DNA of 63,555 nt, the filler included, from Bigelowiella natans CCMP2755 (lineage: Eukaryota; Protista; Cercozoa): assembly GCA_000320545.1 (NCBI GenBank). It is 5 parts of 5 records of this genome, joined end to end, with 100 filler letters (N's around TTAATTAATTAA, not from the genome) between each part and the next. Parts side by side here need not be neighbours in the genome. Positions count along the whole stretch, not along the records: positions 1 to 15,040 come from ADNK01001502.1; 4 more parts are not named here. One strand, written 5' to 3'. The translations under genes were made by a program, and so were the position numbers. Numbering within the stretch: the stretch's first letter is position 1; every line of letters begins with the position of its first letter. Positions 1 through 62,335 of this stretch are shown here, one piece after another. The notes below the pieces were generated by a model. That model worked only from the letters and a program-made list of their open reading frames with translations, searched no databases and was not told the DNA's origin.

Positions 1-2211
1 TGATCTTGCGGGCTGCTGCAGATGCGGCATCAGATTTGAGCTTGCCGACATCCGAAGGGCGGAAGAGAAACCTAATAATCGTGCCAATCCCCCCCACCCC
101 CATCATTATCGTCAATCCACCATCATCACGTAGCAAACTAGATAGAAGCTACTCAATCCCTATTGCTTCTTCGATGCATGATTTCGTTCTAGTTTTGCCC
201 CCCCCCCCCCCCCCTCCCCCCCCTTTCCCCTTCACCACCTCTCGAGCATTGTTGTTATTCAGGTATAATGGCGTGTTGGTGTCTCTCTGTTTGGCTCTGT
301 TTGGCTCTCAGCCGGTAGGCTACTACTAGATTCCAACAACTATATTGCGCAATCAATCGCTTCTTACTGTCGATTGAGGTTAGATCGCTCGATGGCGTCC
401 ATATCCGTGACGGTGACAACGCCGCCCGTCTTGCTCTCCTCGGCCTTCTTCGCTTGATGGCTCGCATTGGCAGCCCCGACCCCCATCAGGGCGAAGTTCT
501 TCAACATCTCACAGCCAATGGCCCCCGCTCCGACGAGGAAGCTGCCGACAGATATATCGAGTGTGGAAATATAAACAATACTCGGCAAACTACCTCCTCG
601 AAAAAACCCAAATAGCTACTGCTGCTACTACTACTACTACTACTACTACTACTGCTGTGATCTTCCGCTATCGCATGCTCGTCCTTACATGTTCAGCCTC
701 GACATCTTCGCCTGCACATCCTTCCCGAAAACAGCAACGTAATCGTCGTAGCGGTGGTGCTGCGCTTCGTCGGGTTCGAACCGATCCTGCGTGCCATCTT
801 CGTCTTCATCTTCTTTTTCTTCTTCAGCAGGGAGGCACTTGGCCGCGGTGAAGTAGTAAAACTGCTTGATCGGCGTGAATTTGCCAGAGACCGCCTTTAG
901 CACTTCCTGCAGGAGGGGAAGTGGGAGAAGGATAAGGAGGAGGAGGAGGATGAGGAGGAGGGAGATTACCAAACAAGGAAGGGAAAAGAAAAGAACCTGG
1001 CCTGCAATGCCCCCGATAACAGCTGCCATCGGCGCGATGACCGCCGAGGAGGTCCTAGCAAGTTTCCTGCACAGTTTTTCATCCACCTTCTCCTTAGCGT
1101 CCGGCATTTGGTCTTTAGCGAATTTGACCGCAAGATCATACACGCTCTTCGCATCCGCCGAGGAGGAGGGGGAGGGGAAGGTGGGCGTGGTGGCCCCGCC
1201 CGTGCCCCCCCCCCGCTGCTTCCTGAACTCGGAGATCCCGTTTAATGTGGCGTGGAGCGTGAAGCCTTCCCCCATGTCGCTCGCGATCTGCGGCGCGCTG
1301 ATGCACTTTTTCAGGGGGGAGAACGCCACTTCCATGGGCCGTTTGACCTGTTGGAAGTAGCCGCCCCCTGTGCTGCTGCTGCTGCCCTCGCTGAGAACGT
1401 CTTCCACGCTGATTGAGAAGCTTGTGGAGTTTATGTATTTGATTTGCCTGATGATCGTTCGTTGTGTGCGCGAGGAGGTGGTTATAGACACGTGTTTATA
1501 TAGACTCATAAATGACCCATCCCCCCACCCCCCTCCCACACCCCATCTTCTCATTATTTCACGTGCATACTTCACTATCTGTGCGGTTACGTTCCGAATC
1601 GCGACTAGAGCGCTCACCTGGGCTTGATAGCATTGAGCGAAGACAACTTCATCTGCAAACATTAACAGGGAGTAGGTAACATGAAGGCGAGACGGAAGAG
1701 GAGGAAGACGAGGACGAGGAGGAAGGAATAGGAGGAGCGGCAAAGAGGGGGGGAGGAAGACAGCGAGTGGAGGGCGGATGAGGGCTTGCAGGTCAAGAAA
1801 CATATCTACACACACACACAAACACACACACACAAGAATGCTACTCCTTTCCCTAGAGCCACCAGAGCTTACAACTCAAACCAGAGCACAAAGGCCCCCA
1901 GCACATAGGATGCCTAATGCAATGCTACACCTTCTCTTCCTTCTGCTACCCAACTAAATCGCGCCAAACAAATCTTGCACTGGGGTCAGTGCTAGATTTT
2001 CTCTTCCCCCCCGCCACCTAGAGCTTATTACTAGTAGTACGAACCAATCATACCTCCTCTAATGTGACGAGATCTCCGGTTGAGAGGCCATGGCGCTCCG
2101 CAGTGGTGATCACGGCAGGTTTCCCGGCAGCAAACTTCTTAATCAGCCCACGCCTCGGTCTTTCGCCGTCCGGATCACTCACGAAATGCGATGGGCCTAG
2201 ATCTGTCGAAT

Positions 2212-2272
<61 letters not shown>

Positions 2273-3419
2273 CAATAATGACTGGCGTTACCCGCAACCG
2301 ACAAGTACGTAACAGACGATGCGTAGGAATTCTATCTACATACCGACGAAGATGGCACCCAAGAGACCGGCTACATCCGCAGAGATGAATTTAAGGCTGC
2401 ACTCACGACAAATTTCGTTGATATCGATCTGTACGCAATGAGGCGGTATTATATGACATTATTCGCTAGAGGGGGCGAAAGAGATCAAGAGGGGGAGAGA
2501 GGACGAGGAGGAGCGCGCAAAAGGTAACTGATGAAAGGGCGAAAGGTTTCGTAGCTGAGCGATGGAGGAAGCATTATAGGCTTGCATAAATATGCTTGTA
2601 TACAGAGTGTGATAGCGCTTCACACAAAAGGACAGCATCATCACCTGTTCCTGCACCGTCTTGTTGATGGCGACAATAACCGTGTACCTATAAATTCGAA
2701 CGCCTCGTTAAATTGAACGTCATCTCAAGAACCCCCCTCCCCCCTTTCGTGGCAATGGCACACGTAAACAACTACACAAAAACATAGAAACGCCGACAGA
2801 AAAGAAGGCAACCTCTTGCTTCGAATGAGAGACTTCATGTCGCCCTTGGCCACGTGCACATCGACGTAGGAATTCAGTTCAGCCAGCTGATTTCGGCATG
2901 CCGCTGCCAACGGTTGTCCCACAGCACTCCGCGGAATGTAGAACTGCGATGCGCGGTGCGACTCCAAGGCCTTCGAGTCGTCATGCAGGCCAACTTCCTT
3001 CACCCCAGCGAGAATTATGTTTTTCGCTGCCGGAATAGATCAAGAGAGGAGGGTCATGATTTTATTCTCGCGCTCTTGTGGAATATAACAATCGTAGCAA
3101 GAATAATCGGTTGTTGCGCTCTGGTCGCAGTTACTACCTAGCTCTACTCCGAGTCCGTCCAAGCCCAGAAGAAGCACGGAAGATTCCTGCATGCGGCGCT
3201 GTGCCTCATGCCCGAATACATAGAGCTGCCGGGAGTAGAGGGACTCATCGATCTCTCCCGTACCTTTTTGATATTTTGAATACTGTATTTAACGGTGGTG
3301 AATCCTTATATTGTAGCTGCTCTCATTTTCTCGTATTTGAGGCCCGTCCTTCCTTCACATTCAATTTCTCACATCATTCTGAACGCAAACGCACCTCCCA
3401 TTGCACCCCCTTTCCCCAT
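1..3419 (-). CDS. UBA1: Ubiquitin-activating enzyme E1, multi-exon, 3' part runs off the window start
   Basis: Spliced translation with GT-AG introns gives MGKGGAMG|[43 protein letters not shown]|[16 protein letters not shown], then [20 protein letters not shown]|[49 protein letters not shown] and [14 protein letters not shown]. These are the classic UBA1 motifs. ATG at 3419 is inferred. Confidence 0.95.
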
Positions 3420-4848
3420 TTTGTCTATGATATTTAAGGATGTTCTTCAAATCTGCGTTTTGATCATAATTCTAAGGCTCTGCATAGGCCATTCACCTTT
3501 CGCTTGCTTCTTCTCGTTCTCCATCAGGGGTGGGTGGCTAAAAATTGCGCGAAAACGTTCGCAAAGAAATTTCCGAACGAAGGTGATTATTCGCTCTATT
3601 TATGGGGAAAACTTCTAAAATTAGTTTCTACTACAAATGTGCGAAAATTTATATGGGCATCTGTAGAAGAATATTGTTTTCACTTTTTTAGGATATTTTA
3701 TGGTTAGAAAATGTCCCGAAATTTTCTGACCAGCCTTCGTAACGTTTAGATGGCGATAACAGACGTACACATTGATCAGTTTACACTTCCCATTCTCCTT
3801 GGGCGATTTATTACATTATCATCAAAATTAATTTATTTAGAATTAAGAATCAAACGATGATGAAGTACGACATCTTTACTATTGCGACAAACATTCTGCA
3901 AAATAAAGTATAAAAATCCGCAATTTTCTTATGGTTGTCTTCTGCACGAGTATTCTCTGAAACGCCCGAGGGAAAGCAAATGCGACATTGATCACCATAT
4001 TGTCGCAATAGAATATTCAAAGGGTTCGACTTCCGTTCTCTAGATCTGCTGTTTGCTGGCAAACTTTTTGGGAAAGTACTCGTATGGATGAGACAACAAC
4101 ATCACAACACTTTTTTCTCATTAATTGAAATTGAGCAGCGATTTGACTGCAATTTCTTCTCCATCCGTTTGCAGCCGAGCTTTCGCTATTCGCTTCATAG
4201 AAAGTTGCCTCCGATCCACCATAACCCAAGCAGACACGGGGCCTCACTTTATGATTCCCATTCGGTTTTTGGACCTGGATCAGTAGCAAAAAGTTGCAAG
4301 AAGTTGCATGCAACTGATGGCTGTTTTTCCTGAGCCAGGTATTGAGGTTCGACTCCTCATGGGATCACGGGGAGGCACACGTCGATTGTCATCTCGGTGC
4401 ACTGTCGATTTTCCGCCTCCACGAGACCTTAAGGCGATTCCATTAGATGGAGCTTAAAAGGCAGTTTACCGAGAATGGTGAATATATACCGATACCTTAG
4501 CTCTGTGCCTTCATCGCTGGTGGACCTGCGGTCAAGTTTTGGAGTCTATGAGGGCAGCAGGCAGCAGGCACCCAATACACACGACTGCAGCTTTGAACAC
4601 GTGTGCTTCAGCATGGGAAGCGCAAATCATTGTGATGTACGATCCTATATGTAGTGCTAGAGCACACGAAAGCGTAAATGATGCATTGCTCGGAGACATA
4701 ATGCATCCTACGCAAATATATAAGCTAACAATGGCAATAATATGCGTCAACGTTTCTATTTATTCGATCAGACTCTTGCTCGTCATTGGCAACGTGCTCA
4801 AATATTTAAATTCGTACGTGCATTGCATCGAATTTCTTGTAGCCATGT

Positions 4849-5971
4849 CTAGATATTGTTCTCCGCTCTGAGTGCGTCTTTTTTAGTTGCAGCTGCTCTA
4901 ATGAACGACGCGGCTACGATGATCGGACGCGCATCTGTGAATTCTTGCAGAATTTCAACATACTCTTCAACCCCCCTCATATCCCGGTTAAGAAAAAACC
5001 CGGCGGGGAAGGGTTTAAGGTAAGGGAAACACCCAAAATCCCGACACCAACAAGGCTTTTATAAGGGGTTTGGGGTTTAGTTTGTTTTGGTAGGACCACA
5101 ATTCAGTAAAACTCCCGTTTGGAGAGGGGGTGTTTCGGGCCCAAAGGTTTTTGGTCCTCCGGAACCCAAAAACAGGAGCGGTTCCTTCGATGGGGGAAGA
5201 TAGAAAGAGGCAAATGGGAATTCCAGATTGTGTTTTTAAAAACTCCCCCCCCCCCCCCCCCCGTAAAGTTTGCACATGAAAATTAATTGTGTATACCTGC
5301 GAACCCACGCGTGGAAGCGGTCTATGATAAGGCACTGGTTCCTCCATTTCGCCTAAAAACCACAAGAAGTATTCTTTGTTCTATTTCCAAGGCAATGCGC
5401 CCAATATAGATTTATTGATGCGTACTCTCAGAGAAACGACGACGTATCGTTGATCTTTAACGTATATATTACGAAGCATATCTGAACCTTCATAAGGCGT
5501 GTGCCATTCCTCCAGACTAGAGAACTAAGCAGCAGTACATTGAGTTATATGAAGAGCATAGATAACACACAAATGCTTCTTATAAATAGAAGACGACCCC
5601 TTTCGCTGCTTCTTGCGCCGGTACGTTGATTAGCATCCAGTGGAGATATTGACGCGAGCCAATGGAGCGCAAATCATCAGGATTTACCATCATAACGCTA
5701 TAAAGCTGAGATTTGGTCCGCAATGTTTTGCATATCAGATTGTTATATCTTTCGATTTTAAAATCTTTATCTAATGTACTTTACGTGCGTGCGTGCTTGT
5801 ATGATGCCAGTTGTGTATGAATGCATGTGCGTGTATATGTGTGAGCCGCGATTGCATATTTCTTAACTCCAGGAACTGTTCCATTGAGGTAAATGCAGCA
5901 ATATAAAAGTGATAGATGTGCTGGCTGAAATGCGAAGAGAAATAGGAATTTGGTAGACTGGACAAAGAGAG

Positions 5972-6028
<57 letters not shown>

Positions 6029-7471
6029 GGGGGAGGGGGGGGGGGGAGAAAAAAAAGTGGGGTGGACAAAGAACAAAGCAAGGAAGGAAGGAAAACGCCG
6101 GATATAAATTCTCGGGTTCAAAAGAGAGGACGAACCATATTCTGCTGGCCAGCAAAGCGAACTGCCGGAGGATACTTGAGCTCGTCCTCATAAACCTTCC
6201 ACAAAATCAAAGGTTATCGAGATCTTCTGAGAGAGCAATTTGCAATCGGAGCGAACAAAATTCAGCTCCTCTTGAAGGGCAAGGAAAGGCACCACCCTTT
6301 CCGACACGTATATCATCTCACAACAGGGACACCCTAACATGCATCCAACTGACCAGTTGGCCAAGGCGGAGCTCGCGGTCATCCTTCCACACGCCAACCT
6401 GCAGCACCACCAGCAACGTCGGCGGAGACATAGAAGATGTCACAGACACAGTATTTAAGTTGATTTAGGTAGGGATCAGCTTTCTCGCTCGAAAAGTCAG
6501 GTAGAGAGAAATGAGAGCCGCGTTTGTAAGGGGAAACATGCAGATCGGGAGAAGGGGTAGACAGGCAGAAAGCAAAGCACAATGAGCCCTGGTGTTTGCA
6601 ATTTTTAGGCAACGACCTCGATTGAGAAATCACTGGCAAAACGAGGCAAGACGCTTGTGAATACATGGCTTGCATCCAAAGACTCCTCCAAAGCGTAATC
6701 ATCTAGTCTACGGGGTGCTTTACGATGGATTTTCTTCGCATGTCGCCGCTCCATCTCCGGATGGTCACCGCCATCGCCACTCTTGCCGATATTGAGGAGG
6801 CTGGGGGGGGGGTAGAGCGAGAGCTCCATTTCCTGCTCAGCGCGCCGGTGATTTTTGTGACAAAAAGCCTTATGATGGGGGGAAAGATACAACGCATAAA
6901 GATACGTGTATGTATGAAGAAGGGCTGTGAACGTGAGTGGAGATATTACGCTAGGTTGTCATCTTCATCATCATTCAATGTGTGATTGGTGGAGAATAAG
7001 GAAACAAATTCTCAGGTTTCACCCCAATGCTTGCGCCCCACTCAATGCTACAGTCCTCCTTCTCGAGGGTGACCTACGATTTGAGACTTAGCAGATGAGA
7101 TGTATGCACTACTCGTGTCTCAAACAGGTTATATATTGGTGGGGGGGGGGGGGAGGGGAGGGGGCTACCAACCTCCAATAGGCGATGGCTATCGTTGAAG
7201 TCGCGCTGATTAAGATTAGCACGCATGGAAAGCATATCAGAGACATCAGATACGCTGATCGTGCATAGAGAGGGGCTATCAATGACAGGTGAGTATCTTC
7301 GCGGGGATGGTTGTTGTGTGATGTGAGATACCAGCTCCCAATTATGGTACAAACGATGGTGCGGATAGGCGTATTGAAACTTCGACAGCTTTTCCTCCAT
7401 TATTTCTCTATGAAGAATGATGCATCAGGCCCTAAGAATCGGTTCTTCTACTTCCACACCAAAAACATGCG

Positions 7472-7502
<31 letters not shown>

Positions 7503-7843
7503 ATACACACACCCGTACGCACGCAAATGCACACACGTGCATACACACATACACATACGCTTCCACGCGCACATTACTAAAAGGTTTATTCTTACTTTCC
7601 ATCGTCTTCTTGCTCGTCGACGTCAGAAGTAAGCTCGTAATTAAAGTGCCTTATGCGGTGCTCAAGCTGGCCCCAGAATAGCCTATCGCCATTCACCTGA
7701 AGAGAGAATCGCGGTGTCTAGTAACTCCAAGGCAGAAGAATACATTGTAATACGGAAGTCTCTTCTTCAACCGTGAGATTCTCCTCCTTTCCTCCCCCCT
7801 CCCCGCTCTACTCCATCTATATTTCGATGATATTTGTCAAACA

Positions 7844-7882
<39 letters not shown>

Positions 7883-8237
7883 TCTTCACTACTTTGACGG
7901 AAAGCTGTTTGGGCTCTGTTTCGTGGATCGGTCTCTTCCTCGCAGTCTCGCAAAGCACGCAATTCTTTATCGTGCTGCCTATATCCTGCCAGTAGCAATG
8001 CTCATTCAGTACCAACCAACGTATGGCTTATACAATACATCATACATATATCGTTGACTCGATTTTCTAGCCTCTCCCTTCTCTGTTCGGAGACCTGTCG
8101 CATCGATCCCCAATAGAAGTTCGGAGCTATTCTCTCAAACATCCTCGTCTATATGCGAGGAGGGGTCAGTCATTAGGCACCGAAGGAGAAATCAAACACG
8201 CACACACAAACACACACATATAGACATAGTATATTTG

Positions 8238-8285
<48 letters not shown>

Positions 8286-9152
8286 ATGCATTCGCATACG
8301 CTTCGTGCAAGAATACCTTTCCAACAAAGCCGCCATAATGCCGTGCGTGCTTGTGAAGCTCCTCATGGTAGACCCGCAGCAGATCTGCTACCATCGGAGT
8401 CGGAACTACTACCTGAAGAATTGTTCTCGCAAAATAAACGAAACGCATCGTTCCTCAAGCACATTTAATCGCTCCCTTGTACATATTCGCGGATGCTGCA
8501 GGACGATGGCTTGCGGGAGAAGAGAGGACGATGAACAAATGGAAAGGCAGCGAGAGAGAGAGAGAGAGAGGGAGAGATGTGTGATGTGATGAGGAAGGTA
8601 GGTAGAAGATACGTATATGCGTAAGATCAGCTGTTTTTAGTTAGCAATATTTCACACTTGGTGCTGTTTCGTAGGAAGGATGGGGTTGTGTTCCATTCTG
8701 AATTATGAGGAAGAGGGGAGGAAAGAGAAACTGTATTACAAGATGCGTTTTCTGCACACGTGAATCCGTGATAAATCTACCTGCGCAGCAGAACGCCAGT
8801 AGCCGGGTCTATCGTGTATATCTGCCACCAACAACAACAACAACGACGCACAATGAGCTTTGCATCTTACGATGATGCGAATGCTGTGGATATTCTTAAT
8901 TCAAGCGATGATGCGAACGCTGTGGATATTCTTAATTCAAGCCCATTTGGTCCCGAAGCAGCCCGCGCATCTTCCCGTAATTCTTACACTTCGTCGAGTC
9001 ACTAGACCTTGGAAAGAGCGATGTAGGCGTCATCATCAACCTTGGGGCAAATGGGTGTAGGGTTACCGCGCGTTGAGGATGGCATCGAGGAAGGCAAACA
9101 AAATGCACAATTTATATGAAGATGATCCAGAAGAACACACACACACACACAC

Positions 9153-9189
<37 letters not shown>

Positions 9190-10583
9190 CCCTTGCACGA
9201 TTCTTCTCAGTTAACAAAGAGATATATTCCTTGAGCGTCTTTTCCTCCCTTTGAGAGGAGGCCACCTTCCTCAGGCTATTGAGGTTCGCCCACGCGCGCA
9301 TGTAGTCACATGTGTCATACAAAAACGGACACAAGCATGCAATCTGAGGGTACACCCAAAACACGGGGGAAACTGGAGACTAGAAAATAAGTATATTAGA
9401 TATAGTGAGCACATATTCTTCAACATCCAAATGTGCGAGCGGAGCAGCAATCGTATCATATATGCATTACTCAGGCTTGAACCAGAGGGCTTTGATCTTC
9501 TCCTTCTTCCGCTGCCGAATCTAGCGTGTAAGCACCATTATCATCATCACCATCATCATCATCATCATCACCACCATCATCATACATGATAAAAATCTTG
9601 GCGAGTTTTGGCTAACAGCTCGAAGCAAATCGTTGTGTGGAAGAAGCCCGTATTTCTCCCGCCCGCTCAATGCTACGAAAGTAGTACGGCGACTCTCTGC
9701 CTGATGAGGGCTCCCGGCGAGAGATGTAGAGCTCTTGTTCGCGAAGTACTACCTTTATTTCAACGTGCTTCGAGGTCGTTTCGAGGGGTACCGGAACGCT
9801 GAGCACAACGTCGTTCTTGGACTCCTTCCATGCGAATCTGGGTTTGGTATACATCAACAACGCAGGCTTTATACGTGTGTAGGCGGTGGCGAAAAACAGG
9901 AAGAGAAGGAGAGAGAGAGAAAGAGAGAGAGAGGGGGGGAGGGGGGGATGGGGAATGTATTCAACGTGACGTACATAAAAGTATATATATATATATATAT
10001 ATATATTATATCAATGTATATTGCTGTGTGTGCGCGCGCGCGCATTGCCTCCCCACACGCACCAAACATTGAAATACCGCGACGACTGATGAACAGTGCC
10101 TAGGGACGATAGAACTGGGTGATTCGATAGCGAAGAAGCCGCCTTTATTCGAGCCTGAGTCGCCATCCTCCGTTGCTTAAGTCGCTGCTGCTGCGAAAGG
10201 TATGCTAGATAACTTGCGAGCCATGGAGGTGATACTTTCCTTGTATGGCTGCCGTCACAAGCCAAGCCTCCCTCCGCATCATTGCTGCTGCCGCACCCAT
10301 CGCGAGGCCCTCCGCTTGCCCCCCCTCCTGTCGATCGTCTGTAGAAGTGTCCGTCATCATCAAAGTCCAGGCTCCTGAGAGAGGGAGAGAAGAGAGAGAG
10401 AGAGAGAAAAGAAACGACGAAGATCTCACTGATATGTTTCCATTTATGTCCCGTTAGCTCAGCAATGAATGCCCCACGGCTGCTTACATGGTTTGGTTTG
10501 GATTCCGGTAGAACCGTTTCGTGACCTGAAACAAAACGCAAAGGCACGCAAACACACGCATAAGTCTGTGGGTATCGCCCCGA

Positions 10584-10628
<45 letters not shown>

Positions 10629-11768
10629 AAGTCGAGGAATACACCACCTCTGAAGGCATTTCATCATCGGAGTCCGGCATCTCAAACGTGTGCGCGCTCG
10701 GGTCTCGAAACCCATCTCTAAGGTGGAATACAGGGGGCAAGCACCGACACAGTAGTTACGAAAGGTTTGGGGGCTGCAGCACGCATTTGTCACTACTATA
10801 GCGGCCATCAGCACTTTGATGAATCTCTAGTTACCATGCGCGCCCTTTTCCTTCATGGATTGATCTTGTCTCCGACAAAACCAAAAATCGTCGAAGGAAA
10901 ACCCTAGCCCTAGCATGCATAATTAACCTTGTATTTTCTGTCACAGCAGTCCAGTTCAACGGTTTACGCTGATGATGCGGCGCATCAGAGGGGTTGGAGT
11001 CTTTCTTGAAGCCGCCTTCAGGCTGTTCTGTACGTACATTACGAGCACTATCTGCTGCCACTTCCTGATGTCCTTCTGCAAGTCCTCCTAACAGCTTGCG
11101 CTTTTGCAGCATTTTCGGATTTCCAGGTTCGTCCTTCCCTGCATCATCGTTCCCGCCCCCCTTTTCCGCCGTCTTCGCCGTTCTCGGGGAGGGTGGGGAG
11201 CTGTTGTCTCTTTGGCGCTTTGATTGCGTCCCTATCTTCCCGCCGTTGTTGTTGTCGTTGTCGTCATCATCGTCGCCTGGCCCGAAATCCTCCCGAAACA
11301 AATTGGGAAGGTTGTTCATCAACTTCATTTCCTCCTCGCCATAGGCATCTTCCATCCCGGCATTGAAAGACGCGGGAGCGTCTCCAGCCAACGTGGGGGC
11401 CGCTGAAGAAGCGCTGCTCCTCGCTATTCGGTGGCTATCGTCCTGCCCGACAGGGATGTCATCCTTATTTCCCAAGGGATCTTTGCGCTTTCCATGCTCT
11501 TGGAATGCTGTTGTGGAGAGATCGGGCCTTCGTAGCGACGATACAACCTAATAGTGGGTAGTGGGTAGTTTGTGGTAGGTCAAATGTGACGGATGCAGTA
11601 TTGGAGGAGATGCGGTGGGTGGTTGGTTAATGATGGAGAAATTACTTTATGATGCACGCACACGCACACGCAAACACAAACACAAGCACAAACACTCGTC
11701 GCGCATTATACACTCCCAACTACGCAAAACCTGCGCCATCCCCTTGATAAGCGAGCTGCAAAGAACAT
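4849..11768 (-). CDS. Large multi-exon protein: putative mitochondrial presequence, split CS (p23/NudC-like) domain, integrase-type H2C2 zinc domain, C-terminal PEBP-like domain
   Basis: N-terminus MFFAARLSRGWRRFC|VVSSLRR. CS N-half FAWKESKNDVVLSVPVPLETTSKHVEIKV (in ORF 9612-9860). H2C2 exons at 8412-8317, 8148-8095 and 7985-7893. CS C-half QLSVK|VNGDRLFWGQLEHRI...LLE|VTLEKEDCSIEW. PEBP motifs SHVFTSVLPRF, LKYPPAVRF, YSVMMVNPD..QYLHWMLINVP, YHRPLPRVGS, PIIVAASFIRA. TAG stop at 4849-4851. Not every intermediate junction was verified. Confidence 0.7.
8870..8941. repeat. 36-bp tandem duplication (2 copies, 1 mismatch)
   Basis: cgatgatgcgaaYgctgtggatattcttaattcaag at 8870-8905 and 8906-8941. Confidence 0.95.
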
Positions 11769-11917
11769 ACCGAAAGTAAGCAATCGAACATTTGTTTTAG
11801 CAATTGCATCAACGACAACAACGAGAAACGGAGCAAAGCTCATTCCGTTTGCATCATGACACCTCTCTATCTGCGCGCGAACTTGCAAGTTCCGCGCACT
11901 AACTTGGAGTTTCTGCT

Positions 11918-12277
11918 ATGTATTTAGATGCATATCTTCGTCAATTGCGCTGCTCAGTGCGCAGCTGGAGAACCTGGGATTTTTTCTCTGAGGCTCTTCG
12001 ATTTGAACGTATCGCTTCTTTTGGGAATCCGAGAGGCATATCACGTTCTCGCCGTCTTCAATCTTCGGGTAAGGGCATGACACATGGATGGCCGTTTTGG
12101 TGATTAGAAACAAAGAAATCACATTGTTAAAGAGTAGAGATATAAAGGGGGGGGGGGAGAAGAGGGGGGAGGGGGGGAGGGGAGCTAACCCTTTCGTCGT
12201 CGTACTCTTCACTCGCTCTATTCTGCATTTCCTATTTCGAAAGACATTTTGTTGGTATCACTCAAATACCTTATGTG

Positions 12278-12320
<43 letters not shown>

Positions 12321-12374
12321 GTTTATCGAAATATATATATTTATATGTTTATCGATAGATACAAATTATGTGAG

Positions 12375-12417
<43 letters not shown>

Positions 12418-12623
12418 GTGTGTGTGTATGTGCGTGTGTGTGTGTGTGTGCGCGCGCGCAGTTTCAACGGCCTCTTGACGATCTGAATATTGGAGGCAAT
12501 GTGCCCTATTCCGTTCTAGGCATTTGCTGTGCATGCCAGAGAATACTTACCTCCATCATCAACTTCCGCTTCTTCTCCTCTTTCTGCGAAATACATCGAT
12601 GTTTCAGTGCGTATGGGTGTGCT

Positions 12624-12662
<39 letters not shown>

Positions 12663-12923
12663 CTGTGTTGTATGTATTGTATGTGTTGTGTTGTATGCGC
12701 GCTTGCGCTCAAATACAACTGCGTTCATATCGTACCATGTTGCGAGTGAAATTGCTTCTATTGATTTACGAATGCCGTTAATTGCTTCTATTGATTTATA
12801 AACATCGCTAAGGCAGGCTCACATCGTTCATACGCCTTAGAACGCCCTTTAGTTTCTCCCTCTGTGCATTTGGCCAAATAGATAGGAACATACACGCACA
12901 AAGACATAACATATATATTAAGA

Positions 12924-12965
<42 letters not shown>

Positions 12966-13200
12966 TATATAATGTATATTTATTTATATATGATTCTAAG
13001 GGATGTGGATAAACGGCAGGATTTTAAAACGGAAGTCACGATCAATATTAGGGATCTTGCGCCACCATTTTGAGCGATTTTGAGTCGGTGCCGATAACGG
13101 GAAGATCGAGAGAGTCCTCATCTGACACTGACCTACAAGACCAAATGTACACAAAGCAGAAATAAGAGAGGGGGGGAGGGGGGAGAGTACGAGAAAAAGG

Positions 13201-13246
<46 letters not shown>

Positions 13247-14121
13247 CATATGAATGTAATGTGGTAAAGCATAGTGCTATAGATGGTGGAGAGTACTCTT
13301 GAAGGCCTCTTAATCGGAGATTTTCCATGCCCTCGATCATTTGATTCACACCTGTAGAAATAGTCAGGATTCGGTAAGCTGAGTAATTTCCACCGATTTA
13401 TACCAGGTTTTTGGGCGTTTTGTTCTGGTCTATTCTGGCAATACAGCAATCTCTTGGATTATCAACCTTTTGCACTGTCAGCGTGTATTTATACATAGCA
13501 TGCATCCCGTTGTAGGAAGTGTTCAATCGTATATGTGAATGTGTGCGAGTTTATCACGTGGGTCTCGATCCTTTTTGTAGCTACGGCGAAACGGCGAATT
13601 CCTATAGATTCTTGCCTCCTCAGTAGCCTCCTTCTCGAGAGTCTAGTCGTCGGTCATGTTTCCAAGGTGTTTTGTTACGATAACAGCAAATGTCAAATTA
13701 TACGTTTATTCTCTGCTCATAATCCCCCCCCCCCCCCCACACACACACACACACACACGCACAAGTGAGATAATTCTCATACGATATAGAGTTCTTATAT
13801 TATGCAATCTAGAGCGGTATCCACCGAGAGTATAGAGGCGTTGTGCGCCTGGTCTTCGTTTGCAAGGTTCTCCTTTGGATTTTGGTTGTTAAATTCGCCC
13901 GGTCTATCAAGTTCCTATCATATAGTATATGAGCACGGGCTCGTCTGCTGATGCATGTGCGGGCGTTGGGACGGAAGAAAGAGGAGGGGATAGGATCATT
14001 TGCATTTACCCGCATTAAATTTAGCAGAGCTTCCTGCTCCGGAGACTGCGCCTTCAGAAACTGAACGAATCATCATCAAGTGCGTTTAATGTATTTGATC
14101 CTTTGAAAACTAAATAACCAT

Positions 14122-14162
<41 letters not shown>

Positions 14163-14288
14163 GTGTGTAGACTATTTCATGGGTAGGAAGGCTGAATCTA
14201 GCGGGAAATTACACGTTTGAATTCGCGTCAACGCTGATGTACCTCTCAGCCAATAAATGGACGGCATTCAATGATTTTTGAAATATAA

Positions 14289-14338
<50 letters not shown>

Positions 14339-15040
14339 AAGCGACAGCACCGATTTGTACATTTCTTCCACTCGGCTCATAGAGACCAAACCTTCCCCGT
14401 CACCATCGCCTTCTTCCTTCTGCAAAACGTCAGCCATAACAACGCGTTATTGCGGCCATACAAACGCTCTTGACGACGAGAGGCCAGACCGATCAGACGC
14501 TTACAAAGCACGTTCAGTAGGTATTGAAAAGAGGGTTGATAACCGCTCTAATACGTGGTAGGAGCGAAACGGTGGGTTGTGCAGCATATTACGTCGGAGT
14601 CTGGGATCTCGCTTGCCAGCTTATCGTAAAAACTTGGATATTTTCAAACGGCATCAGCAACACACACTCAGTTCTTTTACCGTATGGGGTGCTGATGGTT
14701 TTTGCCATTAAAAATGAATTTCTTTCAAAAAAACGATACTGCGAGGATGCTTAACGCGTGTGGTAGAGTATCTGGCTATTGATGTAAGTACGTGTAGTTT
14801 GTTGTTGATGATGGCCTTATCCGCCGTTCCGCCACGTCTTTTTTCATGTTCTCTTCACCGACACACAAAGCAGGAGGCGCTTGAGTCTCATTATCAGCCC
14901 TGGGGGGGGTTGCTTTAGGCGGCGATTTCGTGCTATTCTTCCGCCATATGTACTTTGAGTAAAACTCCCTCCTGCGACAATAACATGTTGGCAGGGAGGG
15001 GGGGGGGGGGGGGAGGAAGGTAAGGGGAAGGAAAGTACGT
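11918..15040 (+). CDS. Probable intron-rich gene of unknown function, cut by contig end
   Basis: ORF 11918 ends at a G|GTAAG donor. Further short AG..GT-bounded open segments lie between microsatellite introns (e.g. FQRPLDDLNIGGNVPYSVL, VFGRFVLVYSGNTAISWIINLLH). No recognisable domain. Confidence 0.35.
12750..12798. repeat. 19-bp direct repeat, 30-bp period
   Basis: aattgcttctattgattta at 12750-12768 and 12780-12798. Confidence 0.9.
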
Positions 15041-15140
15041 NNNNNNNNNNNNNNNNNNNNNNNNNNNNNNNNNNNNNNNNNNNNTTAATTAATTAANNNN
15101 NNNNNNNNNNNNNNNNNNNNNNNNNNNNNNNNNNNNNNNN
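15041..15140. other. Artificial contig spacer
   Basis: Ns flanking TTAATTAATTAA (stops in all six frames), 100 nt, identical at four sites. Confidence 0.98.
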
Positions 15141-17100
<1,960 letters not shown>

Positions 17101-27837: not shown

Positions 27838-27937
27838 NNNNNNNNNNNNNNNNNNNNNNNNNNNNNNNNNNNNNNNNNNNNTTAATTAATTAANNNNNNN
27901 NNNNNNNNNNNNNNNNNNNNNNNNNNNNNNNNNNNNN
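27838..27937. other. Artificial contig spacer
   Basis: N-TTAATTAATTAA-N, 100 nt. Confidence 0.98.
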
Positions 27938-29889: not shown

Positions 29890-32150
29890 TCATTGATGTC
29901 GGCCATCATCCCGTCGACGAAGCCAGGATCGAAGAGGCCGCTCGAAGTGCTTTTCAAGTACATGCGCCATTGCGATGGAAACTATCAGCACAAGGGGAAT
30001 CGCCCATACCGGTATCTGACTCTTACGGGTTTCGAATTCGTTACACTCTTCCGCCGCAGCGCCGCTCGCCTCTCCCTTTTTAGCATCATGCCCACACACG
30101 CCATCAGCTGGCCAAACCAATGGGCCGTGCAGAGCAAGCTTGATTCCATCGATCACAGGAAAGTGAATTAGATATAAACAGAGGGATATCCCCCCGAGCC
30201 ACTGTGCAACGCCAGTACCCAACGCAGTTGAAGCGGCACTTCGACCTCGATCGATCGCCAACGCAGCGACGACGGTCAGCTGCGCATGCGGAACGATGGC
30301 TTGAAACCACACCGCTCCTAGAAGGGATGCATGTGGATCTCTCAGAAAATAGACCTTCAAAGCCGCATCAAGAGCTGAGACGGCCAGGAACGCGGCGAGG
30401 AGCTCAAACGCAATTAAACTCGGATTTTGTGCGAATTCGGGCATTAACCCAGAGGCTCCGCTGAAGGTGGAAGAGGACAGTGCTGCCGCGCCTTCTGCGA
30501 CAATATCATCCTCATCACCGTCATCGTTGCTATGACTGTGGCTTGCTACGTCGCCATCGTCACTGCCATCACCAAGGCCTGGGTTGATGGCGCTCATTTT
30601 GTAGTCATACGACTCCTCTTGGCGGCGATTGTGAGAAGGAGACCACCGGCCGGAGTTTGGGGAGATATGCCCGCACGAAGGCCACCAACCCCCTCCATTT
30701 CCACGGTAGCAGCAACAGCAGCAACCTCTAAGAAAAGGCCATTGAATCCGGCCTGTCTCGTCACCAGCAGCAGCCCAATCATCTTCATGTTCATCATCAT
30801 TTTCCGTGTTTATAGCGAGCTGGCTACTGCCGCTGCGGGTGATAGAGCCGTGCTGTTGCCTGCGACGTTCCAGACGAAGACAGAGCTCCCCCCCCATCAT
30901 GCCCATCAAGAAGAGAGGGAACCTCGTGATAGGGTTCATCGTGGCCGTTGCAAAGCTGATCCAAAAGCCGGCGCCAAGGACAAGAAAGAGGGGGAACCCT
31001 ACAATCGTCAAGCAGAGTTGTAGATAGAAGCACGAAGCTACTGAGTTGCGGAGCTCATGATCAGCCATTCTCTGCAGCGTTGGGAGCCAACTGGGAAAGC
31101 AGAACCAGAATGATGTAAGAGTGGATATCGTCCACGCCGGGCCGTCGAGTGGGGACCCTACTGCAAAGCTTGCAAGTGTAGAGAGGGGGGCTAGCACCGT
31201 GGTAATGACTGAAACGACAATGGAGCCCACGTTTCCAGGACGAACGTATCCGTAACCAAGGTAGAACGCTGGTGCGGCTGTTAGTCATGCACGTGTATGC
31301 ATGAGTATTCGTGTGTTAGGAATATATTCATTGATGAATAAGATACCAATGATGTTCGCAAGGATATAGATGGGGCCGATCCTTGCCACGCGGTTTCTAT
31401 AAAACCTGCTCGCATCCATGATTGCTGCCTCGCGAGAAGCTCTAGCGCCTGATTGTAGCTCCTGCTGATACTCACGTCGTCTCCTCGCCTCTTCTATTTG
31501 GGACGGAAAAGGGACCATGGAGAAAGTGGTTTGTGTGTGTGTGTGTGTGTATGTGTGTATGTGTGCGTGTCGTATATGAATTCGAAGATGTTTGTTCTAT
31601 GGGGAACATGTTGCATATCAACTGACACCTGAATGTGTTGTTCTTAAAGCGAGGTGGAGCAGGCAAGGAAGGATGGGGCCTTCATAACGTAGACGTTTTC
31701 TTCCATAAACTGCTGTAAGGGAAAACCCGGAGAGGATGAAGAAGAGGGGCATGATCGCAGATCCCTGAAAATCCAGTCCAAGCGGGCTGTACAAGATAGC
31801 GTGGAAGGCCACAACCCACACCGCCGCGGCTCCTGGGGGAAACCCACATTAAGAACTGTATTCATAATAGATACACAGCAACTATGAAAGGACAGAGCAC
31901 ACCTCGCAAGCCTGTGTGGGAGCGCATGTCAAGCTGCACAGCATCCTTTTCCTCATTAGCTTCCCCTTCCCTTCCTTCCTCTTCGTGGGATGTAATCTCT
32001 AGTTTAGTTGGTTGGCGAGCCTTTGCGTCTGCACGCTCTCTCACCTCGTCCCCTGCGTTTCACAAAAACAATAAGTACCAAAAAATAGAGAGGATCAGCG
32101 AGGGGGGTACTTTCTTCAGCATGGACGACAGCATACTCTCGAGCCGCCAT
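29890..32150 (-). CDS. Acyltransferase family 3 (OafA/Acyl_transf_3) membrane protein
   Basis: Motifs TGLRG|..AVWVVAFH, MPLFFILSGFSL, FYRNRVARIGPIY, GPAWTIST..FWFCFP, LGGISLCLYLIHFPV, FERPLR, with many hydrophobic helices. Confidence 0.9.
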
Positions 32151-44677: not shown

Positions 44678-44777
44678 NNNNNNNNNNNNNNNNNNNNNNN
44701 NNNNNNNNNNNNNNNNNNNNNTTAATTAATTAANNNNNNNNNNNNNNNNNNNNNNNNNNNNNNNNNNNNNNNNNNNN
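44678..44777. other. Artificial contig spacer
   Basis: N-TTAATTAATTAA-N, 100 nt. Confidence 0.98.
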
Positions 44778-50255: not shown

Positions 50256-51867
50256 TCATTTTTGCAGCATTACGTGCACGTTTCTAGCTGCCTTTTCCGG
50301 CGAGTTCCTGAACCGCATCATGTGCTCTTGCATCGCAGCCGCTGAAAATCGTGTGCAGAACCTAGCTTGGAACGTTGCCAGATGCCTTTCCTTCGCGGGC
50401 AAGGACTTGATGTCAGCTGCAGAGACTCTGCCTGCATTATCCACTTTCAAACAGCGCTTGTTGCTGGTACTCCCAGCACCAGGAAGAACGAAGCTGTAGA
50501 TATTGTCCAAGGTCGTCGTTTTCGCGAGCAAAGCTTCCGTCGCCGTCGGATAGCAGCCGCTGGCACAGAGTGGTGAGTGCGCGGATTTGATTTCCATGGA
50601 GCTCGTTGATTCTGCAACATCGTCCTTCCCATCTCCGTTCTTTTTCACTAACTGAGCGGTGAATGGGAACCCCTCATCGAAGACCCTCTTCGCATTCGAG
50701 GAAGTAGTAGTAGTTCTGTTGCTGCTGCTGCTGCCAGTCACATCGACGTTTGCGTGTTGTGCAATGCGGGTGTTATCATTTTTGGCTTGCCTCGTGTTTG
50801 TTTTGGGTGCCAACGAAACTCGCAGCGATAAGTCACGTGATGTCTTCTTCCGCTGATTCAAATCCTGTGCTCCTTTCGTGTCGCCAACGCTGTTACTGCT
50901 CGAAGAAGAAGAAGAAGAAGAAGAAGAAGAAGAAGAAGAAGAAGAAGAGGGAGAAGCAGCCTTCGCATCATCTAAGAGCATCCGCGTGGAGACTGTAATC
51001 GTGGTGTGCAAAGACGACGACGACGACGATGATGATGATGATGAGGAGGGGGATTGGATTTCGTCGTCCGCCGTCGTCGTCGTTGTCGATATAAGCACTT
51101 CAAAGGTGGCTTTCTCTCTCACAGCGATGATAGAAACAAGGTCGGAGCGGCCATAGAGGGCGAGGAATTGGCACTCGAAGTCATCCCAGAAGCGCATGCT
51201 GTCCTTGACACCTTTGTAGAACTGCCGCCACATCCCTCTCATGATGCTCAGGTCCGCGTTGGGGAACTCCACGCGAGTCCCTTGCTCGTCCACGACACGG
51301 AGAATCTCCTCGTGCAATCGGTTGCAGTGGTTGGTGGTGAAGAATATCAAGCGCCCTGAAAGGATGGGTGAGGTGATGGGAACGGGGGTGGTTAGCGTGC
51401 CGACAGCGTCCAAACATCTCATCCCCCCCCGTCCACCGAGCGTGGAGCAAACCATTTTGTTTTTGAAATGTGGCGAGGTCATGGCGAAGGACCATGATCG
51501 ATCGCGTCAAGAGCGAAGGGTGGATTCTTGCCAAAGCAGTCAATCATCACGTCATCATCATTACCATCATCATCATCATCATCGTCTCTGAACCAATCCA
51601 CCCTAACGCTACTATATTCTGAATGATACCGCAAGGAGGGTTCAGCATGCCCGATATGAGCTCCACAAAGTCCTCTATCTTGACTCCGAAGTCGGAGGGA
51701 TTGCTCACGCCCTCGATGGCAGCCTTTATGCCCTCGACGCCCTTCTTCTCAGGGTTCTGGTTAAGAGGTGTGAATAGAATAGAATAGAATATATATATAT
51801 ATATATAATATGTAATATGTAAGATCCGAATATGGTGGTGATGATACAGATATCATCCATTTGCGTT

Positions 51868-57240: not shown

Positions 57241-58359
<1,119 letters not shown>

Positions 58360-59093: not shown

Positions 59094-60030
59094 ATGCCGT
59101 CGCCGCTCCCATACCGAGTTGTAAAAGAGGCGCAGCCAATCCCCGAGCAAAGTGTCATCAGCCCACCGGTCTACACCTCCAATTATTATGTTGCGTCTCG
59201 TGCCACTTCTCTTAACGTTTTGTGTGTTCCTTGAAGGTTGGCATGATAGTTCATGTGTACTCAAGCTCAAACCCCGCATATTACATGGCCGTTGATCTTC
59301 AAGACCACACCAAATTTAAAGGGTGGGTTCCAACTGAATGTCTTGCTCCATTGGAGCAAAAGAGGACGGAGTCAGACGACGCCGTGACGTCGATGAGTGC
59401 GACGAACGTGGGGGGGGAGGTACAAACCAGGAGGGCACTGGTTAGGGACCGCATTACCAATTTCCAGAAAGACAAACACGATGAGGTTGATTATAAATCT
59501 TCTCGGCCGTCAAGAAGAAGGGGCAAGCTATCAGCTGAAAGGCTCGCGCTATTCGGGCCACCCATGCGTCCCAAACTGCGCAACAGGCCACCGACCCCAG
59601 ATGGTGGACGTAAGGCTCGTCAACAGCGCGGTACCCGGGCATCTCGTGCGAAGAAGCCCTCCCAGAATCCTGAAAAGGAGGAGACGAAGCTGCTCACAAG
59701 TTCGGGACAAAAATGGACAAAACCGGCTGTCACTATGAATTCAGATGTTCCTGATGATGATGAGGTTCCAAGTGCGTTTCTTTGTCCGATATCGCAGGTG
59801 GTGATGAAAGACCCCCACATCAACGTCGTCGGGCAGACCTATGAGAAAGATGCGATAGAGAGGTGGTACAAAAATAGCAGCCTCGACCCAATGACCAACC
59901 AGAGGGTGGAATCGAAGAACCTTATTCCAAACTGTCTATTAAAAAGTCAGGTATCGCATGTGCCACCATCTTTCTACGTCGTGAGTGCAAAAAACTAAGA
60001 TGTTCGTCCTCTCCCCCCCCCCCTCCCCCC

Positions 60031-60084
<54 letters not shown>

Positions 60085-61806
60085 ATTTATACACCTACGA
60101 CCTAGATCCTCGAATGGAAGACCCAATCGGAGAAAAAAAATACCGAAGATCTAGTTGCAGCATCTCCCAGTCCATTGCAGCCAATGGCCTCAACCGGGGA
60201 AAGAAACGCAAGTGGGCAACCGACAGGAAGCAAGCAAAAGAGGCCATGGAGGAAAGTCAAATCAGCCACAAAGACTCAGCTAACTAAAGAACAGGAAATG
60301 AAGGCCCAGGGGTAAATTGATGAAATCGATCGTCGCCTGCCAGAGACTAAACAAATTTTTTACTTGCTCGTTGATGTAAGTGGCTCAATGAGCGGAGGAC
60401 GAATCAGGAAAGTAGGGGAGGTGCTGGATCTTATAGCTAGTGGTTACGAAGACATCGACGAAGTGGCAATCGAGTGTTTTAATCACAAGCTGTGTGAATT
60501 GCAGCCACCCACATCAGACCGCAAGGAGCTGTCTGAAGCCATCAAGCGGCTCCCAGATCTGGTGTCCGGCGGGACCAGGACCTATGAAGCTATTCATTGG
60601 TTACTTCAAAAAATATTTCAAAATGAGAGCCGTCGACCAAGCTATGTCAATCTCATGATCATGACAGATGCTGAAGACTATTTCGATGAGAGTCTCCTTA
60701 AGAAAGAATGGAGTGATTTTCTTTCGGCCATGGAAGGAAACAATGACAAGTTGATAAGTAGTGATTCAATGAGATTTCCTGAGTCCATGCTCTATGGCTC
60801 ACAAGTCAACGAAGCTACAACTGTACTCGTCGGAAGCAGCGATGTCGCTGAGTCAGCTCAGCTCGGGGTTATCGGAAATGTCCTTAAATGTGAGGATGAT
60901 GATTTTGCCGATAAGCTTAGAAGAGCAATCCGCACGGTCAGAGAGGAAGTTAAGTATGACCTAAACTGGGAAAACGGCCCGGCAAAGCCTATGAAGTACT
61001 TTGAGGGTATAATGAAGGTGCGAACGAATGAGGTTGTGACGGAGATTAAGAAGGAAGCAAGAGAAATTGAGGTGGAAATCAAAAAGTCTACAGCTGAAGT
61101 CAAGGCTGCTAAGAGTCGTGTTGAGAGAATTGCTGGTGATTTTAAGAATTTTGTGGATGGCATGGGAGACATTGATTCCATGAGCGTTGAGGAGAAAAGG
61201 CAGAAGCTGCAAGACACCCATGTGAGAGTTCAAGCAGGGAAGGAGGAGAAGCTGAGAGCTAAGCAAACCATGGAAAAGATGGAAAAACAAATTAAAACCC
61301 TGGATGCAAAATTTGAGAAAATATGCAATAAAGCACGCGATGACTTAAACAGGTCAGTCAGCACTGAGACCACTGCTTTCCACGCCATAACCGTCGGCCT
61401 AAGGAGAACGTGGAAAACCATTGGAAGTTTATTTAAGCGCGTAATGTTGTTTTCCAAAAAAAAGAAGAAGGAAATAGCCCCCGCTATGAGTGAGGAAGGT
61501 AAGAGAATGCAGAAGATGCTCTATGACTCCCTTCCCGATATGCCCGACAAGTTTCGATTGAAGTTCATAAAGAAAATAGATAAACTTATTAAACATTTTG
61601 AAGAAAATTCGAAAGAAGGAAAGTCCAAGATAAAAACTGTACAGGACAAGCTGGTACAAGAGTTAAAACAAGTAAAGGAAGGGAAGAGTAACCTAGCAAA
61701 ACTCATTGCGGTCCTTGAAGAAACTCTAACAAATCTGGAACTGAAGGAAGAAGAACTCGAAGACGCCATTTCAGATGACGAGAATAGCGAGGATGATGAG
61801 TATTGA
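59094..61806 (+). CDS. SH3-like + U-box + vWA + coiled-coil protein (putative E3 ligase); one in-frame TAA between U-box and vWA
   Basis: SH3-like: YRVVKEAQP...|VGMIVHV...KGWVPTECL. U-box: VPSAFLCPISQVVMKDP...GQTYEKDAIERW....DPMT....LIPNCLLKSQ|ILEW. vWA MIDAS: LLVDVSGSMSG...GGTRTYEAI...MIMTDAED. K/E-rich coiled coil follows. Confidence 0.8.
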
Positions 61807-62235: not shown

Positions 62236-62335
62236 NNNNNNNNNNNNNNNNNNNNNNNNNNNNNNNNNNNNNNNNNNNNTTAATTAATTAANNNNNNNNN
62301 NNNNNNNNNNNNNNNNNNNNNNNNNNNNNNNNNNN
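62236..62335. other. Artificial contig spacer
   Basis: N-TTAATTAATTAA-N, 100 nt. Confidence 0.98.

Follow-up and report, generated by a model that had tools for sequence, protein, structure and literature searches.

Gene organization and transcript support

The analysed window, a stretch of 63,555 nucleotides from Bigelowiella natans CCMP2755, carries on its minus strand a gene that was modelled at positions 5598–14437 with 32 exons, 997 open codons and 31 introns, all of which have GT-AG ends. The encoded protein, of about 1,000 or more amino acids, comprises a long N-terminal region, a CS/p23-like domain that is predicted to be split in two, a retroelement-type module that would interrupt this domain and lies midway along the chain, and a PEBP-like domain. 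The model has RNA support within 6500–11000; beyond these limits, on either side, its exons are predictions. Transcript contigs extend about 600 nt past 6615, and competing readings are possible for the exons below 5598, which belong to the 3' PEBP part.

Comparison of transcript-type contigs with the window yielded 13 tabulated splice joints for 6500–11000, all of the form CT..AC. All 13 were seen in the contig runs X15 and X17 and nine in X19, the three runs coming from three studies; the raw-read run X21 showed none of the 13, with three reads placed in total. That X15, X17 and X19 are RNA is a label guessed by software. These runs contain 0.17–0.26 of the window's words, against 0.90–0.96 in DNA runs, and several intron-only bins have zero depth in them, so that they behave as transcript sets. 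The initial annotation had proposed that five small exons (8821–8781, 8697–8658, 8412–8317, 8148–8095 and 7985–7893) splice in frame, and this is borne out: the exons have GT-AG ends and join in frame, and their four joints belong to the 13 that were tabulated, two of the four being seen in X19. The offsets of the spliced model equal those of X17 contigs at all five places compared, an agreement that also backs four joints absent from the joint table. Within record 5 of X17, a single spliced contig links exons of the N-terminal part to the module and to the CS flanks on either side of it. The intron at 9007–8822 contains a 36-bp tandem duplication (8870–8941, 97% alike) and is covered by unspliced contig pieces in X15 and X19.

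A query with one exon returned one protein among 70 candidates, the B. natans entry JGI Bigna1 75220 (P0002). This model is wrong at three places, where intron DNA stands instead of RNA-supported exons (9275–9520, 9008–9040 and 7332–7407). The RNA-supported exons that it lacks align to the orthologue from Amorphochlora.

The N-terminal region (10078–14437) encodes about 560 charged, low-complexity residues, and joints 10717/10928 and 10523/10646 within it are found in contigs. The N-terminal halves of the B. natans and Amorphochlora proteins do not align beyond chance, as 43 shuffles in 200 gave an equal local score. The predicted B. natans start, which lies outside the RNA-covered part, is acidic; no targeting peptide was seen there, and a signal-peptide exon 5' of 14437 was sought by eye without one being found. 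An Arg/Ser-rich, presequence-like peptide had been described at the protein start and taken as a sign of possible mitochondrial action. It probably corresponds to a Met followed by a Ser-rich stretch at 10078–10166, an assignment of the Met at 10166 that is a guess. This Met stands at codon 534; upstream of it the frame is open for 129 codons within the RNA-supported stretch, and in the alignment with the orthologue it falls in the interior. The presequence is thus likely internal, and the argument for mitochondria as it was given fails.

Downstream on the minus strand, a ubiquitin-activating enzyme E1-like gene occupies 1–3260 (E1_4HB, E 0.0002). On the other side, at about 14780–17000 and also on the minus strand, exons that cross a gap resemble by eye what we take to be RCC1 repeats; a Pfam scan of one ORF in this interval gave no match. 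The 100-base gaps at 15041–15140, 27838–27937, 44678–44777 and 62236–62335 each consist of a 12-base core with a run of N on either side, and neighbours across the four are uncertain because the gaps are joins. Farther along the window, the ORFs at 29893–31284, 50259–51506, 57244–57834, 59216–59995 and 60316–61803 have Pfam matches, namely Acyl_transf_3, the BCS1-type AAA lid, EF-Tu domain 2, U-box and VWA. ARAGORN found no tRNA.

The integrase-type module

The B. natans JGI protein matches the Integrase_H2C2 profile (PF17921) with 37.8 bits against a cutoff of 25.5, in support of the identity first assigned by eye, and all three orthologues pass the cutoff (37.8, 35.4 and 30.1 bits). None of nine single-exon peptides matches H2C2 in a Pfam scan. 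The module is wider than was first read: it begins at 9275 instead of 8820, spans 7905–9275 and encodes about 144 residues that correspond to an integrase N-terminal extension domain (NED) followed by the zinc-binding N-terminal domain (NTD). Six introns interrupt it, and one more lies at its first codon. The NED-like part (8658–9275) is formed by exons 9275–9191, 9040–9008, 8821–8781 and 8697–8658, and is identical to the orthologue at 25 of 68 positions. Its register was taken from a profile built on hits selected by likeness, so that the register counts and the score does not. The NTD (7905–8412; exons 8412–8317, 8148–8095 and 7985–7893) is placed by PF17921 and shares 28 of 63 residues with the orthologue.

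AlphaFold2 models the module of the Amorphochlora orthologue with pLDDT values of 75–95, from an alignment that included H2C2 relatives, which favours an integrase fold. The model superimposes to residues 8–98 of the PFV integrase (4bac) with a Z score of 8.2 and an rmsd of 2.7 over 87 aligned residues, and to residues 23–135 of the Ty3 integrase (7q5b) with a Z score of 8.0 and an rmsd of 3.1 over 93, the alignments starting at PFV residue 8 and Ty3 residue 23. Beyond PFV and Ty3, the fold search returned the MLV NTD at Z 5.7, and the next unrelated row at Z 4.9. For residues 403–700 of the JGI protein, the Atlas features gave no usable match, and the Atlas structure rows were all H2C2 clusters (TM 0.36–0.43). 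Weak Pfam matches to DciA, SAGA-Tad1 and Peptidase_C28 were set aside as chance.

Other parts of a retroelement were sought and, in agreement with the initial annotation, were not found. Reverse transcriptase (RT), RNase H and rve are absent in Pfam scans of all three orthologues. A tblastn search of the window with 13 element polyproteins, which has low sensitivity for small exons, gave a best E of 0.26. No LTR-like repeat occurs in 1–15040, where only microsatellites and short duplications were seen.

The net charge of the module is +4.2 per 100 residues in B. natans and −1.4 in the orthologue; the 73 other hits of the protein search described below have a median of +4.0. A charge that is not kept basic suits protein binding better than DNA binding.

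The zinc site

The first His, the Trp and the CxxC of the module are invariant; the CxxC (7950–7961) occurs in each of the three orthologues and in every one of the 73 other hits. The region upstream of the CxxC departs from the family pattern. Two His lie four residues apart at 8353–8367, where 8365–8367 encodes the canonical first His and 8353–8355 an extra His; both are kept in Amorphochlora and fall on one predicted helix. The extra His sits in an insertion that is absent from all 73 other hits, and the segment that carries it is six residues longer than in Ty3/gypsy and foamy-virus integrases. The canonical second-His position, 29 residues before the CxxC, is occupied by Phe (8326–8328). 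This column holds His in 71 of the 73 other hits and Phe in both full orthologues. The residue first read as the second His (8338–8340) is Lys in the orthologue, and that assignment is not upheld.

The resulting spacing, HX3H-X38-CX2C, falls outside the HX3-7H X23-32 CX2C that is given for integrase HHCC fingers (PMC5384227). The zinc site was likely rewired, because the canonical second His is replaced by Phe while another His is conserved. On the pattern of conservation, it is fairly likely that zinc is held by a putative rewired H-x3-H...CxxC set.

A CS/p23-like domain predicted to be split by the module

Upstream of the module, one exon (9753–9837) encodes the N-terminal half of a CS/p23-like domain. 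It matches PF04969 at positions 3–31 with E 0.019 and, in a second scan, at positions 1–41 with E 0.0025 and 19.2 bits; the orthologue matches at positions 2–35 (E 0.003, below cutoff). Overall, scores range from 16.4 to 19.2 bits, which misses the cutoff of 21.3, and cover the first half of the profile only. The NudC-family structure 1wgv is a weak PDB match of this half (E 0.06), and a PDB sequence search with the half alone returned no match. A basic bridge exon (9471–9520), which is established by a contig joint and missed by the JGI model, leads from the N-half to the module and is identical to the orthologue at 6 of 15 residues.

The stretch after the module (7038–7904; exons 7696–7596, 7407–7332, 7205–7173 and 7073–7023) is the predicted C-terminal half, with an acidic insertion. 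It is conserved in the three orthologues and resembles what we take to be the pattern of the second half of a CS domain; no profile matched it, including Pfam on the JGI version. The name CS is given from the N-half match together with this C-half pattern.

The orthologue flanks, residues 652–700 and 843–938, fold together when supplied as two chains, with a value of 0.63 against 0.00 for the best of three controls, contact agreement between runs of at least 94% and partner pLDDT of at least 66. Among microbial pairs, 51 of 78 solved ones and 2 of 108 mismatched ones attain the mark used in this test; among eukaryotic pairs, 39 of 65 and 2 of 126 do so. Contacts are predicted between strand 671–678 and residues 916–922, and between 688–689 and 849–851 at the edges of the insertion. 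The run was made on the Amorphochlora protein and shows no function; halves of a known fold may pass by likeness to solved CS folds, and this likeness is the point tested. Against a split CS domain stand the scores below cutoff, the C-half that no profile matched and the outcome of AlphaFold2, which with shallow alignments left both CS halves below pLDDT 50. Fold searches with these models returned no CS structure among their rows, a result that is uninformative because the halves were unfolded. On these predictions, the two flanks probably close into one beta domain.

The PEBP-like domain

The N-terminal two thirds of a PEBP-like domain were placed at 5598–6706 from PF01161, PDB and Atlas comparisons. 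PF01161 (PBP; cutoff 24) gives 18 bits for the JGI protein, 23.9 for another orthologue and no match for that from Amorphochlora. The closest PDB entries differ by orthologue in how mL38 ranks against canonical PEBPs: for the JGI protein they are Tm16 (E 2e-5), then FT and mL38, and for the orthologue and a three-sequence profile mL38 chains come first, at 30.5 bits against 28.5 for FT. The Atlas comparison of the orthologue reaches 0.92 to PEBP clusters with 200 of 256 features, and the clusters that the features indicate are short canonical PEBP/FT ones. AlphaFold2 left the greater part of the domain unfolded. What we take to be the anion-pocket motifs are degenerate in the PEBP-like domains of all three orthologues.

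Orthologues and relatives

An unindexed search of 1.84 billion representative proteins gave 76 hits and was the sole search to retrieve the orthologues; word-indexed searches returned the query protein only, or nothing among shorter proteins. P0003 from Amorphochlora amoebiformis (1184 residues, E 8e-27) matches the CS N-half, the module and the C-flank, and P0010, an MMETSP fragment, matches from the module end onward. Both run on into the PEBP-like domain, and among the 76 hits only these two match past the module into the CS flank or flanks and show PEBP similarity. Identity per segment is 27–44%, with the zinc NTD at the top (44%, against 27–40% elsewhere). The three orthologues form a clade with support of 0.97 in an unrooted tree of 76 segments, whose 121 columns are too weak to name a donor lineage. 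Judged from sequence, the gene is conserved in at least two chlorarachniophyte genera.

The first 46 residues of P0003 contain no acidic residue but 10 Arg/Lys, and include a hydrophobic stretch at 14–33. This leader could be a targeting signal; the predicted B. natans chain has no counterpart to it.

Among the 73 non-orthologous hits, 28 were scanned: 21 have rve, RT or RNase H, six carry several H2C2 stretches and no core, and one is a fragment. In P0007, P0021, P0052 and P0074, which lack an integrase core, three H2C2 stretches are accompanied by THAP domains and by a D-Tyr-tRNA deacylase domain. P0007 comes from the fish Coilia grayii, and proteins of this type constitute another host architecture with an H2C2 module. 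P0012 and P0027 have four H2C2 stretches each, again with no integrase core, and P0012, from the sea urchin Lytechinus, has C2H2 fingers in addition.

Interpretation

The integrase module is very probably a true domestication in a host gene, since the splicing, the open frame, the Pfam and fold matches, the orthologues and the loss of the catalytic core all speak for it. The old co-option of a Ty3/gypsy integrase module advanced by the initial annotation is backed in the same way by Pfam, the fold, the RNA joints and the orthologues. Its splicing and its H2C2 domestication stand; the presequence, the argument for mitochondria, the second His and the extent of the module do not, and it overlooked the NED, the CS-like halves that flank the module, the PEBP-like domain and the shift in His register. 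An artefact, in which the element would have decayed or the gene model be chimeric, is highly improbable and already largely refuted. Although the errors in the JGI model would speak for it, one spliced contig of X17 runs through N-terminal exons, the module and its CS flanks on either side, and the same domain order recurs in an independent genome.

The reading that we prefer, with a probability of roughly one half, is that the module is a zinc-held protein-binding arm on a co-chaperone-type scaffold. The NED and zinc NTD of a Ty3/gypsy-type integrase would be inserted in a hairpin turn of the predicted CS/p23-like domain. Since no catalytic part is present, a scaffold is the best reading of the protein. 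CS folds dock on Hsp90 or on a client, as in p23, Sgt1 and NudC, and the CS fold of this protein would do likewise. The NED would bind a partner protein, as the NEDs of Ty3 and DGLT-A bind TFIIIC subunits: that of Ty3 binds Tfc1, and that of DGLT-A binds the TPRs of Tfc4 as well as RNase H and itself (PMC6101501). The PEBP-like domain, with its worn pocket, may offer a further docking surface. The location in B. natans is most likely the cytosol or the nucleus, since the predicted start is acidic; the basic and hydrophobic start of the orthologue, unlike that predicted for B. natans, is a counterpoint. In a history that is slightly less likely than not, a chlorarachniophyte ancestor would have captured the entire NED–NTD arm into the CS hairpin of an Hsp90 co-chaperone, moved its zinc site onto a new pair of His and retained the arm since then for targeting in a CS–PEBP scaffold.

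Cellular HHCC modules that are known act on DNA (PMC5384227, PMC1807970), which counts against a protein-binding arm on a scaffold, as does a zinc motif outside the published spacing. The module might be a DNA- or RNA-binding zinc finger and the protein a nuclear regulator in which the CS and PEBP domains sense or dock. Spt10 has an integrase-like His2-Cys2 finger within its DNA-binding domain (PMC1807970), the HHCC of ZBTB11 is required for repression (PMC5384227) and the Ty3 NED helps to grip LTR DNA, which it steadies (PMC8632968). In the present protein, both NED and NTD are retained and a basic bridge precedes them. This reading is nevertheless rather unlikely, given that the orthologue module has a charge of −1.4 per 100 residues where other hits have a median of +4.0, that the canonical second His is lost and that Pfam scans show no other DNA-binding domain.

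An organellar role appears improbable, whether as an enlarged mL38-like mitoribosomal protein or as a plastid or periplastid protein with a bipartite leader of the kind described in PMC3542566. It would account for the first rank of mL38 in the PDB for the orthologue and the three-sequence profile, for the C-terminal PEBP-like domain that mL38 itself carries (PMC5683760) and for the acid-free, Arg/Lys-rich leader of the orthologue with its hydrophobic stretch. The B. natans protein, by contrast, matches Tm16 and FT ahead of mL38, the Atlas points to short canonical PEBP/FT clusters, the claimed presequence is internal and the predicted B. natans start is acidic. Still less probable is a module without zinc that is tolerated as a structural passenger within a CS–PEBP loop: the Phe in place of the canonical second His and the spacing outside the published motif agree with a passenger, but the NTD is the best conserved of the segments compared, and the His pair and the two Cys are shared between genera.

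Comparison with known systems

A search of the published literature, mostly outside subscription journals in its scope, returned no report on the gene or its architecture. In the portion of the PMC10927497 supplementary files that was available, the gene ids and domain names did not occur and numeric coincidences alone were seen. The domestication of integrase HHCC modules as such is already known from Spt10 and ZBTB11.

The module shares with the NED and HHCC NTD of Ty3/gypsy and foamy-virus integrases a PF17921 match above cutoff, a fold over 87–93 residues, the first His, the Trp and the CxxC. It differs from them in that no catalytic core, RT, RNase H or LTR was found with it, in having introns inside and in the Phe that replaces the second His. 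The PEBP-like domain resembles the PEBP family (PF01161; FT/TFL1, Tm16, mL38) by sequence and by Atlas features, and differs in being the C-terminal domain of a long protein. As in CS proteins (PF04969; NudC, 1wgv), the N-half matches the start of the profile in both genera; unlike in these proteins, about 155 residues of bridge and retroelement module interrupt the domain, in addition to a second, acidic insertion.

GIN1 and NYNRIN keep the integrase core, which the present gene lacks. Like it, these two host genes descend from integrases of retroelements and have an HHCC motif (PMC5384227). Spt10 in yeast and ZBTB11 in vertebrates are closer, in that each has an integrase-type zinc module in a host protein with no integrase core (PMC1807970, PMC5384227). 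They regulate transcription and have GNAT or BTB/C2H2 partners, whereas the partners here are CS-like and PEBP-like, and the spacing of ZBTB11 is the canonical HX6H-X29-CX2C, which that of the present module is not (PMC5384227).

Few HHCC modules of integrase type in cellular proteins have a role that was tested, and their sources are fungi and animals; the present gene adds a rhizarian case. Its proposed design, with an insertion in a host fold, altered ligands and a chaperone-type context, tests the module as a protein-binding unit, and the case bears on the way in which the register of a zinc site may move. The gene also illustrates how an intron-rich genome hides captures, as no single exon matches H2C2 and the public model is wrong around the module. 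In contrast to Spt10 and ZBTB11, only here is the module predicted to interrupt a domain; if the proposed arrangement is true, domestication proceeded by domain insertion within a host fold and not by end-to-end fusion.
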